Origin: Escherichia coli
Lineage (GTDB): Bacteria; Pseudomonadota; Gammaproteobacteria; Enterobacterales; Enterobacteriaceae
Length of the DNA stretch: 64,000 nt
NCBI RefSeq assembly: GCF_003790525.1
Contig: NZ_CP033635.1
Strand: one strand, 5' to 3'
In this document: positions 10,609 through 16,218 of the stretch, one piece after another
Layout: each line of letters opens with the position of its first letter
Position numbering within the stretch: the stretch's first letter is position 1
The notes under the pieces: model-generated
What the model was told of the DNA's origin: nothing
The model's input: the letters and a program-made list of their open reading frames with translations, nothing else
The model's database searches: none
Program-made: the position numbers and the translations under genes

Positions 10609-11311
10609 GATGCCAGCGCAGCAAGTTTGCCATCGCAAAGAGATATTTTTCGCTGGCTTCGTCGGAGGAGATGGGTGGAAACTCTGCGGTGATGCAATGC
10701 AAGTTGAGATCTGCACACCAACTGCCGAAAGAGCCAGGTGTTTCATAACCGACGCTGGTTACCAGAGGCAATTCAAACGCCTGGGCCAGCCATTCACCTA
10801 ATTCGCTGTGTCTGGGATCTTCAATACAGGCCAGCGGATCGTGGAATGAGACCACCCAGGCAGGTTGAATGCGGTGTATAAGTTGGCACAGCGCCTGGGT
10901 TTCAGGTTCGGAGCCAGGTTTGCCACCTGTCAGTAAAACGACATCACGTTCTTCAGCGGCGCTGTTCCAGCGATAAACTGTTTCACCTTCCTTCCAGTTC
11001 GCTGCCGGAAAGTTTCGGTTTAAATCCACACCATTAGCATTGGCCCGTAACCCTAACTGGCAGCCGTCAGGATTCACACACAGCACCACATGATGGCGGC
11101 GCAAAGACGGTGTCAAAGTCCGCAGAGCACAGGAGAGCGTGACGATCGAAGAGTTTTCATCACCGTGAGTGCCAGCCAGAATCAAACCACTTTCGTGACT
11201 GGCTGCAGGGGCCGGAAACCAGATTAACGGCGCGCCCAATAATGAACGTCCGTAATGTTCTGTACCGGGCGGAAATGCGCCGCGTTCGGCGCGTGGGCGA
11301 GTTACGGTCAT
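10583..11311 (-). CDS. mpaA: Murein peptide amidase A (M14 carboxypeptidase-like gamma-D-Glu-Dap amidase)
   Basis: Zn-binding HGDE motif (AGTHGDENSS); start chosen at MTVTRPRAERG (242 aa), longer ORF to 11371 is possible. Confidence 0.85.
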   Translation of the reverse strand: MTVTRPRAERGAFPPGTEHYGRSLLGAPLIWFPAPAASHESGLILAGTHGDENSSIVTLSCALRTLTPSLRRHHVVLCVNPDGCQLGLRANANGVDLNRNFPAANWKEGETVYRWNSAAEERDVVLLTGGKPGSEPETQALCQLIHRIQPAWVVSFHDPLACIEDPRHSELGEWLAQAFELPLVTSVGYETPGSFGSWCADLNLHCITAEFPPISSDEASEKYLFAMANLLRWHPKDAIRPS

Positions 11312-11406
11312 GATCGTCTCTGGTTCAGGAAGTATTACAGGCAGTGTTGTGCAAATTTTGCGGATTATCAAATCCTTTTCTTCAACGCTATGTTATCGAT
11401 CTTGTA

Positions 11407-11436
11407 TCACTTTTTTGATGGAAGTTGTTTGTATTT
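11407..11436 (+). repeat. Direct repeat copy 1 (TCACTTTTTTGATGGAAGTTGTTTG[T/C]ATTT), about 75 bp upstream of mpaA
   Basis: 30 bp with one mismatch to second copy at 14518-14547. Confidence 0.6.
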
Positions 11437-11601
11437 TCATTGATGTGCAGATATTAGAATTGTCGTAATGTTATATACATGGCGTATTTTATTCTTACTG
11501 GTTCTACACATGTTAATCGCATCTGATTGATCAGTTCACCTTAATAAGTTTAATAAATCGTACTGCACATAGTACAGTACGATGGTAGCTATATAATTGA
11601 T

Positions 11602-12240
11602 TTACATGAAGAAGGGCTTATCACCATCAGTCCCGGGTTGATTGATGCCTATATTCTCACCAATGTGTTTCTCAGGTTTATCGATGATATCTGTGATTAA
11701 TGCTGCGACACTCTTACGTGATACGATCGTACCTTTGAATGGTTCATTGCGTGAGGTAAGCTCATAATCAATAATATCTTCATCAGTCAGCCAGGCAGGG
11801 CGAAGAATTGTATATTCCAGTCCAGAAGCCTCAATTGCATCCGCAGCCCTGCGGAATGGTTTTAGGGGTTCACCAATAACTGCATTATTCCATTCGCCAA
11901 ATTTTCCTGGAACTTCATCATAAATACCGAGGGAAAGAACAAAGATCAGACGTTTAACATCACAGGCTTTCATCGCAGCGATCACTGAATTTGCCTGAAT
12001 ATCTAAATCTTCCCCCGTAAGGTTGGCATACACAACATCCTGTCCCTGCATGGCCTGCTTCAGTGCTGCATGATTCAGTACATCCCCCATAATAATCTTG
12101 CTATTAGTTGGATAGGGTTTGTGGATTTTTGCTGGCTGACGGGCAAATAAAGTTTGTTTAATGGTTTGTTTATCTGCCAGTTGATTAATCACATGGCGGG
12201 CTATCTGACCGCCAGCACCAAGAATCAGTATATTTTTCAT
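11602..12240 (-). CDS. ymjC: NAD(P)-binding Rossmann-fold protein (NmrA/SDR-like), intact
   Basis: 212 aa; N-terminal MKNILILGAGGQIARH dinucleotide-binding motif; start overlaps stop of upstream small ORF. Confidence 0.8.
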   Translation of the reverse strand: MKNILILGAGGQIARHVINQLADKQTIKQTLFARQPAKIHKPYPTNSKIIMGDVLNHAALKQAMQGQDVVYANLTGEDLDIQANSVIAAMKACDVKRLIFVLSLGIYDEVPGKFGEWNNAVIGEPLKPFRRAADAIEASGLEYTILRPAWLTDEDIIDYELTSRNEPFKGTIVSRKSVAALITDIIDKPEKHIGENIGINQPGTDGDKPFFM

Positions 12241-12311
12241 GAAACTTTTCCCAGATTATTGGCAGCAATATGCCAGGCCATATCACTATTACGGATTTGA
12301 ATATGTTTCAT
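12237..12311 (-). CDS. ymjD: Small ORF (24 aa, MKHIQIRNSDMAWHIAANNLGKVS) translationally coupled between ycjY and ymjC
   Basis: Start ATG overlaps ycjY stop (TAATG) and stop TGA overlaps ymjC start (ATGA); not in ORF track because under 60 aa; name from recalled ycjY-ymjD-ymjC-mpaA operon. Confidence 0.5.
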   Translation of the reverse strand: MKHIQIRNSDMAWHIAANNLGKVS

Positions 12312-13243
12312 TACAGAGTTTCCTCAAAGAACGGAGCTAATACTGAAATTGCTTCAGCCACATAGACTTTGCCGTCATAAAGATCCATATGGTTTGCGCC
12401 TTCAACAATGTGATAGCGTTTATCCTTGCTTGATGCTCGATCGTACAGGTCGTCACTCATCCATTTGCTCCCAGCCTGGCTGCCCGCCACAATCTGTATC
12501 GGCTGAGTCAGGTACACTTCCGCCATATGGTAAGCATCATAGGTAATAATCTGGTTAAGGCTGCGCAAAGTAGCGTAACCCGGTGCTGTTGGATACTGCG
12601 CGCGAGGGGTGTGGTAATACTCCCAGGCCTGACGCAGTTCTTCGTTCGGCGCATCGGACTCCTTCATTGGTGCCAGTGGCATAGTGGCGTATTCTCCGCT
12701 GCTAATATCGCTGGTTCGGGCGTCTGAACCCGCGTCAACGTATGGTAGGGCATCAATAGATTTCACATTGTTTTCCCAACCATTACGGAACATCGAACCA
12801 ATATTGACCGCACTAACAGTACCGATGGCCTTGATGCGGCGATCCTGAATTGCAGCATTGGCTGTATATCCTGCTCCGGCACAAATTCCCATCGCACCAA
12901 TTCGGGTATTGTCGACATAAGAAAGCGTTGTCAGGTAATCAATCACGGCACTGACGTCTTCAGTACGAATGTATGGGTTTTCTAACTGACGCGGCTCGCC
13001 GCCGCTTTCACCTTGATAAGATGCGTCATAAGCAATAGTGACAAATCCCTTTTCCGCCAGTTTTTCGGCATAGGTTCCGGCCGTTTGCTCTTTAACGCCC
13101 CCACCTGGGTGAGATACCACAATTACCGGATACTGACGGGTTTCATCAAATTTTGGAGGGAAATAGATCACTGCAGACAAAGAGATGGTTGGATTATTGC
13201 TGTTAGTGAAGCTGACTTTATTATTCATCATTCCGTTCCTCAT
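12311..13243 (-). CDS. ycjY: Alpha/beta hydrolase (dienelactone-hydrolase-like, Cys nucleophile)
   Basis: 310 aa; nucleophile elbow G-I-C-A-G (GxCxG) in IGAMGICAGAGY. Confidence 0.88.
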   Translation of the reverse strand: MRNGMMNNKVSFTNSNNPTISLSAVIYFPPKFDETRQYPVIVVSHPGGGVKEQTAGTYAEKLAEKGFVTIAYDASYQGESGGEPRQLENPYIRTEDVSAVIDYLTTLSYVDNTRIGAMGICAGAGYTANAAIQDRRIKAIGTVSAVNIGSMFRNGWENNVKSIDALPYVDAGSDARTSDISSGEYATMPLAPMKESDAPNEELRQAWEYYHTPRAQYPTAPGYATLRSLNQIITYDAYHMAEVYLTQPIQIVAGSQAGSKWMSDDLYDRASSKDKRYHIVEGANHMDLYDGKVYVAEAISVLAPFFEETL

Positions 13244-13301
13244 GGAGTTGTCGGTTCGTTTTAACGGTTGGTGATATCACTATAGATATTGATCATTAAG
13301 T

Positions 13302-13350
13302 TGATTAGACCCAAAATCATGATTAGACCTATCATTTAAATGATTAATAG
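13302..13350. promoter_or_regulatory. Candidate operator repeats in divergent ycjY/pgrR promoter region
   Basis: TGATTAGACC at 13302 and 13320 plus TGATTAATAG at 13341, spaced about 18-21 bp, between divergent starts. Confidence 0.35.
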
Positions 13351-13368
13351 ATTGTATGGAGATACTGA

Positions 13369-14268
13369 ATGAAGCGTGAAGAAATCGCTGATCTGATGGC
13401 GTTTGTCGTTGTTGCAGAGGAGCGTAGCTTCACTCGCGCAGCAGCCCGCCTGAGCATGGCGCAGTCAGCTTTAAGCCAGATAGTGCGCCGTATAGAAGAA
13501 CGATTGGGATTGCGGCTTCTGACGCGAACCACGCGCAGCGTTGTACCCACTGAAGCGGGCGAGCATCTTTTGTCTGTTCTTGGCCCTATGTTGCATGACA
13601 TAGATTCTGCCCTGACATCCCTGAGCGATCTGCAGAACCGCCCATCCGGGACAATACGTATTACTACTGTAGAACATGCAGCAAAAACGATATTGTTACC
13701 AGCTATGCGCACATTCCTGAAATCGCATCCTGAAATTGATATTCAGCTTACCATTGATTATGGTTTGACCGATGTCGTTTCTGAACGTTTTGATGCAGGC
13801 GTCCGTCTGGGTGGGGAGATGGATAAAGATATGATCGCCATTCGAATCGGGCCAGACATACCAATGGCTATTGTTGGCTCACCGGATTATTTTTCTCGTC
13901 GAAGTGCTCCAACGTCAGTGTCACAATTAATAGATCATCAGGCAATTAATTTGTATCTTCCCACATCGGGTACAGCAAATCGCTGGAGATTAATACGCGG
14001 TGGACGTGAAGTTCGTGTTCGCATGGAAGGTCAGCTTTTACTGAATACGATAGACCTGATCATTGATGCTGCAATTGATGGGCATGGATTGGCGTATCTA
14101 CCTTATGATCAGGTTGAGCGGGCTATTAAAGAAAAAAAACTGATACGTGTTTTGGATAAATTCACACCAGATTTACCCGGTTATCACCTGTACTATCCAC
14201 ACCGTCGACATGCTGGCTCGGCATTCTCATTATTTATAGATAGGCTGAAGTATAAAGGTGCTGTTTAG
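13369..14268 (+). CDS. pgrR: LysR-family transcriptional regulator (peptidoglycan recycling regulator)
   Basis: 299 aa; N-terminal LysR HTH (MAFVVVAEERSFTRAAARLSMAQSALSQ). Confidence 0.9.
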   Translation: MKREEIADLMAFVVVAEERSFTRAAARLSMAQSALSQIVRRIEERLGLRLLTRTTRSVVPTEAGEHLLSVLGPMLHDIDSALTSLSDLQNRPSGTIRITTVEHAAKTILLPAMRTFLKSHPEIDIQLTIDYGLTDVVSERFDAGVRLGGEMDKDMIAIRIGPDIPMAIVGSPDYFSRRSAPTSVSQLIDHQAINLYLPTSGTANRWRLIRGGREVRVRMEGQLLLNTIDLIIDAAIDGHGLAYLPYDQVERAIKEKKLIRVLDKFTPDLPGYHLYYPHRRHAGSAFSLFIDRLKYKGAV

Positions 14269-14517
14269 CACTACTTGCTGATACATTAATTTAATTCTTC
14301 TCTTAACGTATTCTCAGTTCCTTTCAACGTTTTGGTTATTTTTTATTCTTCGCACAATGGCGACAGATGCTGATTATGATACCGAAAACGGGTTTGAACG
14401 TGCGAAGCCCGAACGTAGTGTTCGGAGTTCTATGTGCTTTACCGCATTTTGGAGACTATTATTTACACTAAATCTGATTTGATATATTGATACTTAAAAC
14501 ATTTGATGCTTCCTTTG

Positions 14518-14547
14518 TCACTTTTTTGATGGAAGTTGTTTGCATTT
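14518..14547 (+). repeat. Direct repeat copy 2 (TCACTTTTTTGATGGAAGTTGTTTGCATTT), about 60 bp upstream of mppA
   Basis: Matches copy 1 at 11407-11436. Confidence 0.6.
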
Positions 14548-14604
14548 CTTTAAGGCGAAACAAATAATTACGCATCAATTTTAATGTCGGTTAGAGGGAA
14601 ACTT

Positions 14605-16218
14605 ATGAAGCACTCTGTTTCAGTCACGTGTTGTGTGCTGTTGGTCAGCAGCATTTCTCTTTCGTATGCTGCTGAAGTTCCGAGCGGCACAGTACTGGCA
14701 GAGAAGCAGGAGCTGGTGCGCCACATTAAAGATGAGCCAGCGTCGCTGGATCCCGCTAAAGCCGTGGGCCTGCCGGAGATTCAGGTCATTCGCGATCTGT
14801 TTGAAGGACTGGTGAATCAGAACGAGAAAGGGGAGATTGTCCCCGGCGTTGCGACTCAGTGGAAAAGTAATGACAGCCGTATCTGGACTTTTACCCTGCG
14901 CGATAACGCAAAATGGGCGGATGGCACACCGGTAACGGCGCAAGATTTTGTCTACAGCTGGCAACGTCTGGTGGACCCGAAAACGCTATCGCCATTTGCA
15001 TGGTTTGCCGCGCTGGCGGGAATCAACAACGCACAGGCGATTATTGATGGTAAAGCCACGCCTGACCAGCTTGGCGTCACCGCAGTTGATGCCCATACTT
15101 TGAAAATCCAGCTTGATAAACCATTGCCGTGGTTTGTGAATTTAACCGCTAACTTTGCCTTCTTCCCGGTGCAAAAAGCCAACGTAGAAAGCAGTAAAGA
15201 GTGGACGAAACCCGGAAATCTGATCGGCAATGGCGCTTATGTTCTTAAAGAGCGCGTAGTCAATGAAAAACTGGTCGTAGTGCCGAATACCCATTATTGG
15301 GATAACGCCAAAACGGTACTGCAAAAAGTGACCTTCCTGCCAATTAATCAGGAATCCGCAGCCACTAAGCGTTATCTCGCGGGGGATATTGATATCACCG
15401 AATCCTTCCCGAAAAATATGTATCAGAAGTTGTTGAAGGATATTCCGGGGCAGGTTTATACGCCGCCGCAGCTCGGGACCTATTATTATGCGTTTAACAC
15501 GCAAAAAGGGCCGACGGCAGATCAGCGCGTTCGCCTGGCATTAAGTATGACGATAGATCGCCGCCTGATGACCGAAAAAGTGTTGGGGACGGGCGAAAAG
15601 CCAGCGTGGCATTTTACACCAGATGTTACCGCGGGATTTACGCCGGAACCTTCGCCGTTTGAACAAATGAGTCAGGAAGAACTGAATGCGCAGGCAAAAA
15701 CTTTGTTGAGCGCAGCTGGTTATGGTCCGCAAAAACCGCTGAAGTTGACGCTTTTGTATAACACTTCAGAAAACCATCAAAAAATTGCGATTGCTGTAGC
15801 ATCGATGTGGAAAAAGAACCTGGGCGTAGATGTTAAATTGCAAAACCAGGAATGGAAAACCTATATCGATAGCCGTAATACCGGCAATTTTGATGTTATC
15901 CGCGCCTCGTGGGTAGGGGATTATAATGACCCCTCCACTTTCCTGACATTATTAACGTCAACGCATTCCGGGAATATTTCACGCTTTAACAATCCGGCAT
16001 ATGACAAAGTTCTGGCCCAGGCATCGACGGAAAATACCGTTAAAGCGCGTAATGCCGATTACAACGCGGCAGAAAAAATCCTCATGGAGCAAGCACCGAT
16101 TGCACCAATTTATCAATATACCAATGGACGATTAATCAAGCCGTGGCTGAAAGGTTATCCCATTAATAACCCTGAAGATGTGGCGTACAGTCGGACTATG
16201 TATATTGTGAAGCATTGA
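14605..16218 (+). CDS. mppA: Periplasmic murein tripeptide-binding protein (OppA paralogue, SBP family 5)
   Basis: 537 aa from MKHSVSVTCCVLLVSSISLSYA signal peptide. Confidence 0.9.
   Translation: MKHSVSVTCCVLLVSSISLSYAAEVPSGTVLAEKQELVRHIKDEPASLDPAKAVGLPEIQVIRDLFEGLVNQNEKGEIVPGVATQWKSNDSRIWTFTLRDNAKWADGTPVTAQDFVYSWQRLVDPKTLSPFAWFAALAGINNAQAIIDGKATPDQLGVTAVDAHTLKIQLDKPLPWFVNLTANFAFFPVQKANVESSKEWTKPGNLIGNGAYVLKERVVNEKLVVVPNTHYWDNAKTVLQKVTFLPINQESAATKRYLAGDIDITESFPKNMYQKLLKDIPGQVYTPPQLGTYYYAFNTQKGPTADQRVRLALSMTIDRRLMTEKVLGTGEKPAWHFTPDVTAGFTPEPSPFEQMSQEELNAQAKTLLSAAGYGPQKPLKLTLLYNTSENHQKIAIAVASMWKKNLGVDVKLQNQEWKTYIDSRNTGNFDVIRASWVGDYNDPSTFLTLLTSTHSGNISRFNNPAYDKVLAQASTENTVKARNADYNAAEKILMEQAPIAPIYQYTNGRLIKPWLKGYPINNPEDVAYSRTMYIVKH

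Follow-up and report, generated by a model that had tools for sequence, protein, structure and literature searches.

In Escherichia coli SMS-3-5 the genes ycjY, ymjD and ymjC lie adjacent to mpaA, a murein tripeptide amidase gene, on the same strand, which raises the question whether they take part in the degradation of murein peptides. In K-12 the LysR-type regulator PgrR (YcjZ) targets ycjY-ymjDC-mpaA as well as ycjG and was named for peptidoglycan recycling; it is negatively autoregulated, and SELEX placed a site for it in the ycjY/ycjZ spacer (Shimada, Yamazaki and Ishihama 2013, as relayed in PMC5934670 and PMC10505187). A preliminary description of the 64,000-nucleotide stretch of DNA analysed here (the window) proposed that ycjY, ymjD and ymjC are chained by overlapping stop and start codons and form, with mpaA, a murein-peptide degradation operon. 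The chaining itself is read directly in the sequence, from the TAATG at 12311 and the ATGA that follows ymjD (Table 1). Stop/start overlaps of one and four bases are frequent inside bacterial operons and such a chain is therefore statistically unremarkable. An Rfam scan of 10500-14700 returned no riboswitch or leader match at E <= 0.1, and thus no known element of either kind lies there. Already on record are the genes themselves, the pseudogene status of ymjC in K-12, the Cys elbow, the structures, the PgrR-regulated operon and the murein hypothesis, and the murein idea is not new since it follows the K-12-based PgrR literature. Our analysis leads to a different reading, to which we give a probability of about 0.8: the region is a horizontally acquired pgrR/ycjY/paralog/ymjC cassette, three-quarters intact and decaying, that has no intrinsic link to murein peptides.

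Table 1. Features of the locus in SMS-3-5 (window coordinates).
Feature	Position	Strand	Remarks
mpaA (murein tripeptide amidase)	10583..11311	minus	290 nt downstream of ymjC; RefSeq annotation
Ancestral mpaA upstream region	11312..11436	minus	contains conserved TTTTGCACAACACTGC block; kept downstream of insertion
37-bp direct repeat, mpaA-side copy	11400..11436		89% identical to the 14511-14547 copy (repeat search)
Stretch deleted in K-12-type alleles	11437..12101	minus	665 bp; ymjC codon 47 onward, hairpin, right-hand flank of the island
Terminator-like hairpin	11557..11583	minus	19 nt after ymjC stop; 12-bp stem, 3-nt loop, then UUAUU
ymjC	11602..12240	minus	212 aa; intact atypical SDR; ATG overlaps ymjD TGA (ATGA, 12237-12240)
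ymjD, 24-codon ORF	12237..12311	minus	ATG shares one base with ycjY TAA stop (TAATG)
ycjY ORF	12311-13243	minus	310 aa
ycjY, RefSeq and crystal-structure gene model	12311..13231	minus	ATG at 13231; 306 aa
Candidate PgrR operator	13301..13346	minus	palindrome ATCATTTAAATGATA (13330-13344) and two GGTCTAATCA repeats; pgrR/ycjY intergenic
pgrR (ycjZ), LysR-type regulator	13369..14268	plus	divergent from ycjY; RefSeq annotation
37-bp direct repeat, mppA-side copy	14511..14547		repeat search and alignment

Insertion between mppA and mpaA

Four other enterobacterial genera, represented by Citrobacter, K. oxytoca, Enterobacter mori and Serratia liquefaciens, have a cassette-free mppA-mpaA-ycjG-tpx order in which mppA and mpaA are directly divergent. 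In SMS-3-5 the corresponding site is occupied by an island flanked by two 37-bp direct repeats; Citrobacter has one counterpart between mppA and mpaA, to which both of them align. The segment immediately upstream of mpaA can be aligned to its counterparts between mppA and mpaA in Citrobacter, Enterobacter and K. oxytoca. Between the repeats lie only pgrR, ycjY, ymjD, ymjC and a 93-nt queH-like fragment, and no integrase or transposase was found there. The G+C content of the island is 0.44, against 0.53 for tpx-ycjG-mpaA. In Escherichia the cassette has entered the ancestral mppA/mpaA spacer, where a 37-bp direct duplication flanks it, and mpaA is a resident gene outside it. The insert has the features of an islet: it is absent from the orthologous site in relatives, is bounded by duplicated target sequence, and its gene set turns up again in unrelated surroundings, on plasmids and beside mobile-element genes.

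Outside Escherichia, pgrR, ycjY, a paralog of ycjY and ymjC make up a self-contained four-gene cassette. Its YcjY is 71-92% identical across several phyla and plasmids, from Enterobacteriaceae to Rhizobiales, Bacteroidota and Acidobacteria; such high conservation across phyla makes the cassette a reasonable target for deorphanisation. Pluralibacter, Sphingobium and Rhizobium keep it adjoining integrases and IS elements, and Klebsiella IncF and conjugative plasmids carry it beside Tn3 and IS1. We surveyed the flanks, within about 8 kb, of cassette loci in 79 non-Escherichia species. A PgrR ortholog (55-88% identity) lies divergently upstream of the ycjY ortholog in 51 of the 73 loci with room for it; the paralog is present in 57 of 73 and YmjC in 19 of 68. 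MpaA, YcjG, MppA or Tpx was a neighbour in none of the 79. No further gene family consistently travelled with the cassette in these flanks, the most frequent being an ABC-transporter ATPase-like ORF at 12 loci. An OYE-type flavin reductase follows the cassette in a few enterobacterial copies.

The gap before mpaA and the murein reading

The 290-nt gap between ymjC and mpaA contains a terminator-like hairpin as well as the conserved ancestral region. In RNA folding the hairpin scored -16.2 kcal/mol (z = -4.4), and none of 200 shuffled sequences did as well. As its U-tract is weak and a simple terminator scan did not detect it, transcription may read through into mpaA; that promoter and terminator scan gave sites no more numerous than in shuffled sequence and no clear mpaA promoter. 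Because the hairpin and the ancestral region separate ymjC from mpaA, the single operon of the preliminary description is doubtful, and the operon listing in the literature comes from K-12, which lacks the spacer. We propose that mpaA would keep its own upstream region and that its joining to the ycjY transcript would be largely confined to K-12-type strains, which lost the intervening hairpin through the deletion.

The cassette's own regulator is pgrR. Among 56 cassette intergenic regions drawn from distant taxa, 42 have the motif ATCA-N6-TGATA beside the start of the LysR gene, and 36 of these also have a downstream CTAAT. A perfect match is found in the repeat upstream of mpaA as well (11405-11419), from which PgrR may have been recruited to the control of mpaA.

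These data bear on the proposal that ycjY, ymjD, ymjC and mpaA constitute one operon for the complete degradation of murein peptides or related compounds, lost in K-12 and retained in SMS-3-5. Besides the adjacency and common strand of the four genes, the proposal can draw on RegulonDB-type listings of a ycjY-ymjDC-mpaA unit under PgrR, on the PgrR-box-like motif upstream of mpaA, and on a 2025 paper that labels YcjY "(putative) peptidoglycan degradation". The published filamentation upon ycjY overexpression also favours it, since this phenotype is compatible with a cell-envelope substrate and counts against the cassette reading. We nevertheless consider the proposal unlikely. The cassette has none of the cell-wall neighbours in any of the 79 other species, mppA is directly divergent from a cassette-free mpaA in four other genera, a duplicated target sequence flanks the insert, and the hairpin and the ancestral upstream region stand between ymjC and mpaA. 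Moreover, the operon evidence is from K-12, where the deletion removed the ymjC-mpaA spacer. The paralog and ymjC have been lost repeatedly in E. coli, whereas mpaA has a very low pN/pS within the species (0.00-0.07, against 0.18-0.49 for ycjY); with fewer than 25 substitutions per gene these ratios merely hint that ycjY is less constrained than ymjC, pgrR and mpaA, the changes being too few to conclude. The murein module with MpaA thus gives way to a foreign insertion, and a murein function has no genomic support because a partly decayed, acquired cassette landed between two genes of cell-wall-peptide recycling.

Decay alleles of ymjC and the ymjD stump

The full-length ymjC noted in the preliminary description is indeed truncated in K-12, where MG1655 has a 46-codon fragment annotated as "incomplete; missing C-terminus". 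Its intactness is not specific to this strain: ymjC is intact in 2,902-2,926 of 5,426 complete E. coli genomes (about 54%, the majority state), and PDB 3QVO is 98% identical to YmjC across all 212 residues. Homology with K-12 stops at window position 12102 and restarts at about 11436, and mpaA is offset by 665 bp relative to SMS-3-5. This loss took most of ymjC, its 3' hairpin and everything up to the island edge. E. coli is polymorphic for the successive decay of the cassette: the paralog survives in about 24% of complete genomes, about 30%, SMS-3-5 included, have lost 289 of its codons in frame, and about 43%, K-12 included, have the additional 665-bp loss. Among sampled E. coli strains, four had an intact paralog and three a pseudogene; independent frameshifts or stops disrupt it in O157, O145 and W.

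The 24-codon ORF ymjD had been taken for a coupling element. It turned out to be the in-frame stump of the second Cys-hydrolase gene, the 310-aa ycjY paralog. In the alignment ymjD retains the first 18 and the last 2 codons of the paralog, the first 18 being identical to the paralog start in O157 and W, and an 867-bp in-frame deletion (289 codons) has its junction between 12257 and 12256. A separate 12-bp deletion maps to the ymjC start. The old TAA stop of the paralog is now AAA at 12246-12248; it is owing to this mutation in the intact-ymjC lineage that the stump reads through to a TGA sitting over the ymjC start, which creates the ATGA overlap. The overlap is allele-specific: it occurs in all five sampled alleles with intact ymjC and only in deletion alleles of this kind. 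K-12 lacks it, its 21-aa ymjD ending in TAA 5 nt before the ymjC ATG, and in paralog-keeping genomes ymjC starts 17-20 nt past the paralog stop. The TAATG overlap is inherited from the junction between ycjY and the paralog, which is kept in enterobacterial copies on chromosomes and plasmids; alphaproteobacterial copies have gaps of 60-150 nt instead. Ribosomes finishing the stump probably aid initiation at ymjC, and such coupling would be a by-product of the deletion and not a designed leader.

Could ymjD be under selection in its own right, as a genuine small protein or as a leader ORF coupling ymjC translation to ycjY? The stump retains the paralog ATG with a GAGGA Shine-Dalgarno within the 3' end of ycjY, 3,950 genomes have its junction allele, all five sampled intact-ymjC alleles have the ATGA overlap, and YmjD figures among the expressed small proteins of K-12. 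We find this improbable, as the sequence is no more than the two ends of a 310-aa enzyme, its length and stop codon vary with the allele class, and it is absent outside the E. coli deletion alleles. In addition ymjC begins without overlap where the paralog is kept, and has its own purine-rich stretch (GGGAAAAG) 5' of its ATG.

Loss has also to be weighed as a reason for the absence of the cassette from other genera, but an ancestral position at the mppA/mpaA site in Enterobacteriaceae is very improbable and already disfavoured: close copies (YcjY 87-92% identical) do exist in Citrobacter, Serratia, Kluyvera, Shimwellia and Pseudocitrobacter, yet they sit elsewhere in the genomes with neither mppA nor mpaA nearby, the intergenic region of about 185 bp is uninterrupted in four genera, a sequence that is single-copy there is duplicated at the two ends of the E. 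coli insert, and the Klebsiella cassette is plasmid-borne.

The cassette proteins and their relation to known systems

The GICAG elbow of YcjY spans residues 119-123 of the 310-aa ORF, and its cysteine is Cys117 in the numbering of the 306-aa protein (codon 12881-12883). The cysteine nucleophile proposed earlier is borne out by an alignment of 78 diverse YcjY representatives at 33-60% identity, where the Cys is conserved in 72 and His281 (codon 12389-12391) in 73. At the canonical position after strand 7 these 78 sequences have no conserved acidic triad residue, residues 251-261 being variable. The GxCxG motif of YcjY is already in the literature and is not new. Pfam matches are to Peptidase_S15 (the best, E 4.9e-11), DLH (PF01738, E 6.4e-9, residues 32-139 only) and Abhydrolase_1. 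PDB 5XB6, the K-12 YcjY, confirms the alpha/beta-hydrolase fold, and the AlphaFold model is mediocre (pLDDT 66.6, from a shallow alignment). A fold search with YcjY recovered 5XB6 and 2HDW and, beyond these, generic esterases, thioesterases and lipases, with no peptidoglycan-related protein among them; hits as generic as these give YcjY no functional assignment. A literature search on 5XB6, 3QVO, PA2218 and UilS found no relevant paper. YmjC, labelled "SDR family oxidoreductase" in RefSeq, matches PF13460 (NAD_binding_10) over residues 8-189 (model positions 1-184 of 184, E 3.4e-54), with the N-terminal Gly-rich dinucleotide motif GAGGQIA at residues 8-14.

Putting these elements together, we infer that a Cys-His nucleophile pair in YcjY and in the paralog would attack an ester, thioester or lactone, whose hydrolysis product would then be reduced by YmjC, an NAD(P)H-dependent reductase with BLVRB and ChuY among its relatives. 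PgrR would sense the substrate and control the divergent promoter. The cassette could thereby serve to catabolise or detoxify a small molecule, and would have no inherent connection with murein peptides. Ester or lactone hydrolysis followed by reduction is a more likely role than a murein module.

We would give even odds to a broader proposal, namely that PgrR and YcjY have been misfiled under peptidoglycan recycling and belong to an unusually conserved and promiscuously transferred cassette of two paralogous Cys-hydrolases and a reductase, acting on a small molecule of wide occurrence, perhaps an unsaturated lactone or ester. The link to mpaA would then be an accident of insertion, which the K-12 deletion strengthened by fusing the transcripts, in a species that is losing the cassette bit by bit. 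What calls for correction is that the K-12 "ycjY-ymjDC-mpaA operon" and the name PgrR rest on an arrangement produced by insertion and subsequent deletion, the full cassette having no comparative-genomic link to murein peptides. Functional work on YcjY, PgrR and YmjC is best carried out in carriers of all four intact genes, such as E. coli O103:H2, whose intact paralog is WP_000680592.1, or a Klebsiella plasmid, and the search for effector and substrate should turn to small molecules rather than murein peptides.

The closest known system is the K-12 ycjY-ymjD-ymjC'-mpaA unit with PgrR, which has the same genes, gene order and divergent LysR regulator as SMS-3-5. The latter differs in keeping a full-length ymjC, its 3' hairpin and 165 nt of island flank, and in a ymjD of 24 rather than 21 codons that overlaps the ymjC start. 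PDB 2HDW (PA2218) has a GICG elbow in common with YcjY; like 5XB6 and 3QVO ("NmrA family protein") it is a structure without assigned function. By sequence, the nearest characterised structural relatives of YmjC are the atypical SDRs (PF13460) BLVRB and ChuY/ShuY, which include a biliverdin-IXbeta/flavin reductase; the similarity to them is remote, with E about 1e-5 to 1e-6, and YmjC is found in a context unrelated to haem. No NCBIfam family scored above its cut-off for YcjY, the paralog or YmjC. The best match there for both hydrolases is the UilS-family N-acyl-homoserine lactonase (NF047920), whose full model the paralog spans, but with 89 and 75 bits, far under the 400-bit cut-off, YcjY and the paralog are not members. 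With the dienelactone hydrolase family (PF01738) YcjY has in common the alpha/beta-hydrolase fold, the G-x-C-x-G elbow and the conserved Cys and His. The family is one of Cys-His-Asp hydrolases, and its model matches YcjY weakly and only over the N-terminal half (E 6e-9), Peptidase_S15 being better. In classical dienelactone hydrolase pathways the next step is an NAD(P)H-dependent reduction by maleylacetate reductase. The cassette resembles these pathways in that its hydrolase genes are followed by a reductase gene, which here encodes an atypical SDR instead of a maleylacetate reductase.

Reading frames and allelic states of ycjY-ymjD-ymjC

The preliminary description of this region is accurate as an observation: the three frames are indeed chained, as the ycjY TAA stop and the ymjD ATG have one base in common (TAATG) and the ymjD TGA stop overlaps the ymjC ATG (ATGA), while YcjY carries the G-I-C-A-G elbow and ymjC is full length. 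Its interpretation was partly right, with some of its facts standing and the function it proposed unsupported. The feature is already on record, except for our reading of the cassette (the divergent LysR regulator gene pgrR, ycjY, a ycjY paralog and ymjC) as an inserted island.

Coordinates of the features in the window
Feature	Position	Strand	Remark
ycjY	12311-13243	minus	RefSeq and crystal-structure start at 13231, giving 306 aa
24-codon ORF (ymjD)	12237-12311	minus	
ymjC	11602-12240	minus	212 aa
mpaA	10583-11311		290 nt downstream of ymjC
37-bp direct repeat copies	11400-11436 and 14511-14547		duplicated in E. coli, single-copy in other genera
ATCAAAAAAGTGATA	11405-11419	minus	perfect ATCA-N6-TGATA match, lying in the 37-bp repeat copy that is upstream of mpaA

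As the preliminary description stated, ymjC of K-12 MG1655 is a pseudogene fragment of only 46 codons, annotated as missing its C-terminus; it results from the loss of 665 bp that correspond to window 11437-12101. The accompanying suggestion that an intact ymjC is a strain-specific trait did not hold. The locus is present in 5,256 of the 5,426 complete E. coli genomes and the distal part of ymjC in 2,902-2,926 of the 5,426; intactness is therefore the majority state in E. coli and nothing special to SMS-3-5 (NC_010498.1), the strain that is 100% identical to the window in this region. Approximate allele frequencies are 43% for the K-12 type, 30% for the SMS-3-5 type and 24% for paralog-bearing alleles. 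RefSeq labels the intact gene 'SDR family oxidoreductase', the structure of a protein 98% identical to YmjC has been solved (PDB 3QVO), and pan-genome work classed ymjC as an accessory gene (PMC9602453). Further independent decay events were seen in E. coli K_EC180, where ymjC is frameshifted, and in Citrobacter sp. Awk 4, where it is reduced to a 180-nt 3' remnant.

The origin of ymjD can be read from paralog-bearing genomes (about 1,280, including O157:H7 and E. coli W), in which a 933-bp gene between ycjY and ymjC encodes a 310-aa YcjY paralog (41% identical, GVCGGG elbow) and starts at the same TAATG as ymjD. Alignment showed that SMS-3-5 and K-12 have two deletions in common, one of 12 bp at the ymjC start and one of 867 bp, in frame, which retains the first 18 paralog codons and the last two codons plus stop and creates one hybrid codon, so that 'ymjD' is the gene stump of the paralog. 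The EcoGene label, 'expressed deletion pseudogene fusion remnant', agrees with this reading. In K-12-type alleles ymjD still ends, after 21 aa, at the TAA of the paralog, 5 nt ahead of ymjC, and in paralog-bearing strains ymjC starts 17-20 nt past the paralog stop. In intact-ymjC alleles TAA has become AAA (5/5 sampled) and the frame extends to the TGA over the ymjC ATG, giving 24 aa; the ATGA overlap is thus a secondary accident. An intact paralog was seen in SCU-316, E2855, O103:H2 FWSEC0007 and CUVET18-1475. Frameshifts or stops interrupt it in O157, O145 and RMDEC465, and in E. coli W it has a TAG at codon 13, the shorter RefSeq CDS of that strain starting downstream of this codon.

A mobile cassette between mppA and mpaA

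In Citrobacter, K. oxytoca, Enterobacter mori and Serratia liquefaciens mppA lies directly divergent from mpaA, which is followed by ycjG, tpx and tyrR; the gap is about 185-190 bp in the first three and about 700 bp, with one small unannotated ORF, in Serratia. In E. coli this ancestral intergenic region is split, one half on each side of the insert. DNA homology to other enterobacterial cassettes begins only at the pgrR stop and ends 9 nt beyond that of ymjC, and G+C is 0.44 in the insert versus 0.53 in tpx-ycjG-mpaA. Between pgrR and mppA, 93 nt (14366-14458, plus strand) are 87/93 identical to an E. coli KO11FL segment that RefSeq annotates as an internal fragment of the epoxyqueuosine reductase gene queH; this stretch is probably donor DNA brought in with the cassette. 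The K-12-type deletion starts at ymjC codon 47 and its other end falls within 1-2 bases of the inner edge of the right-hand repeat (11436/11437), which suggests a recombination event using the island end and not a random deletion.

A survey taking one genome per species gave 80 loci, 79 of them non-Escherichia, with YcjY 71-97% identical and including Alpha-, Beta- and Gammaproteobacteria, Bacteroidota and an acidobacterial MAG. Among the non-Escherichia loci, 51 of the 73 with room for one have a PgrR ortholog upstream, the paralog is found in 57/73 and YmjC in 19/68. Rhizobium, Sphingobium and Burkholderia have YcjY homologs of 81-85% identity; a divergent LysR gene and the paralog flank ycjY in Pluralibacter, in Sphingobium and on a Rhizobium plasmid, which carries an SDR gene too. 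Across these copies identity is 70-79% for PgrR, 63-81% for the paralog and 66% for YmjC. Integrases and IS elements adjoin the Sphingobium and Rhizobium loci, and the whole cassette is found on Klebsiella IncF and conjugative plasmids beside Tn3 and IS1. The proposal that mpaA and ycjY-ymjC form one murein-peptide module was not borne out: MpaA, YcjG, MppA or Tpx occur in 0/79 non-Escherichia loci, and the insert sits within the mppA/mpaA region. No other flanking gene family recurs consistently in these 79 loci, the commonest being an ABC-transporter ATPase-like ORF (12 loci). The ycjY unit is a mobile cassette of which mpaA is not a member. Across Enterobacteriaceae, Rhizobiales, Sphingomonadales, Burkholderiales, Vibrio, Pseudoalteromonas, Chitinophaga, Flavobacterium and the acidobacterial MAG (loci L010-L089) YcjY is 71-92% identical, which is unusually tight for an orphan enzyme.

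PgrR, its candidate operator and mpaA transcription

Of 56 intergenic regions taken from cassettes of distant taxa, 42 have the palindrome ATCA-N6-TGATA beside the start codon of the regulator gene; PgrR and its putative operator therefore travel with the cassette. The window holds 6 matches where 0.45 would be expected. In the repeat copy on the mppA side the TGATA part reads TGACA, and Citrobacter has GACA...TGATA; the match upstream of mpaA could be a candidate site recruiting PgrR to mpaA control, or a coincidence.

A 12-bp hairpin lies 3' of ymjC (-16.2 kcal/mol, z = -4.4), followed by the ancestral mpaA upstream region, one block of which is conserved across genera. The K-12 deletion, ending at the repeat's inner edge, took out this hairpin, and its loss would fuse the ycjY transcript to mpaA. 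The published 'ycjY-ymjDC-mpaA' unit under PgrR (PMC5934670) was defined in this K-12 deletion background.

Enzyme chemistry and the cell-wall question

Both Pfam (Peptidase_S15, DLH, Abhydrolase_1) and structure (5XB6) show YcjY to be an alpha/beta hydrolase, and Rychlewski et al., as cited in PMC3709699, pointed out its GXCXG motif long ago. The proposed cysteine nucleophile is consistent in sequence with conservation of Cys117 in 72/78 and His281 in 73/78 diverse representatives; the murein-peptide substrate suggested with it is unsupported. Within E. coli pN/pS is 0.18-0.49 for ycjY (12311-13231) versus 0.05-0.12 for pgrR, ymjC and mpaA, at no more than 20 substitutions per pair, and on these small counts constraint on ycjY may have relaxed after paralog loss.

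YmjC is an NAD(P)H-binding atypical SDR of full length, whose closest characterised relatives are ChuY/ShuY and BLVRB. We propose that the Cys-His hydrolase pair would open an ester, thioester or lactone and that the YmjC reductase would act next, on the hydrolase product, both steps being presumably under PgrR control. Some cassette copies add an OYE-type flavin reductase. In Citrobacter sp. Cu233 (locus L012, 10611-11760) a similar OYE-type gene follows ymjC, and on the K. variicola plasmid NZ_CP103422.1 (1872-8853) a second, related cassette with LysR, alpha/beta hydrolase, SDR and NADH-dependent flavin oxidoreductase genes lies directly beside a LysR-hydrolase-hydrolase cassette.

A cell-wall link is kept alive by the PgrR literature, by the filamentation that follows ycjY overexpression (PMC3614548) and by the perfect PgrR-box-like motif upstream of mpaA. 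The closest folds to YcjY are the thioesterase DcsB, feruloyl esterases and lipases, and the closest NCBIfam model, at a score far below cut-off, is an acyl-homoserine lactonase; together with the OYE-type reductase these likenesses point to small-molecule chemistry for the cassette.
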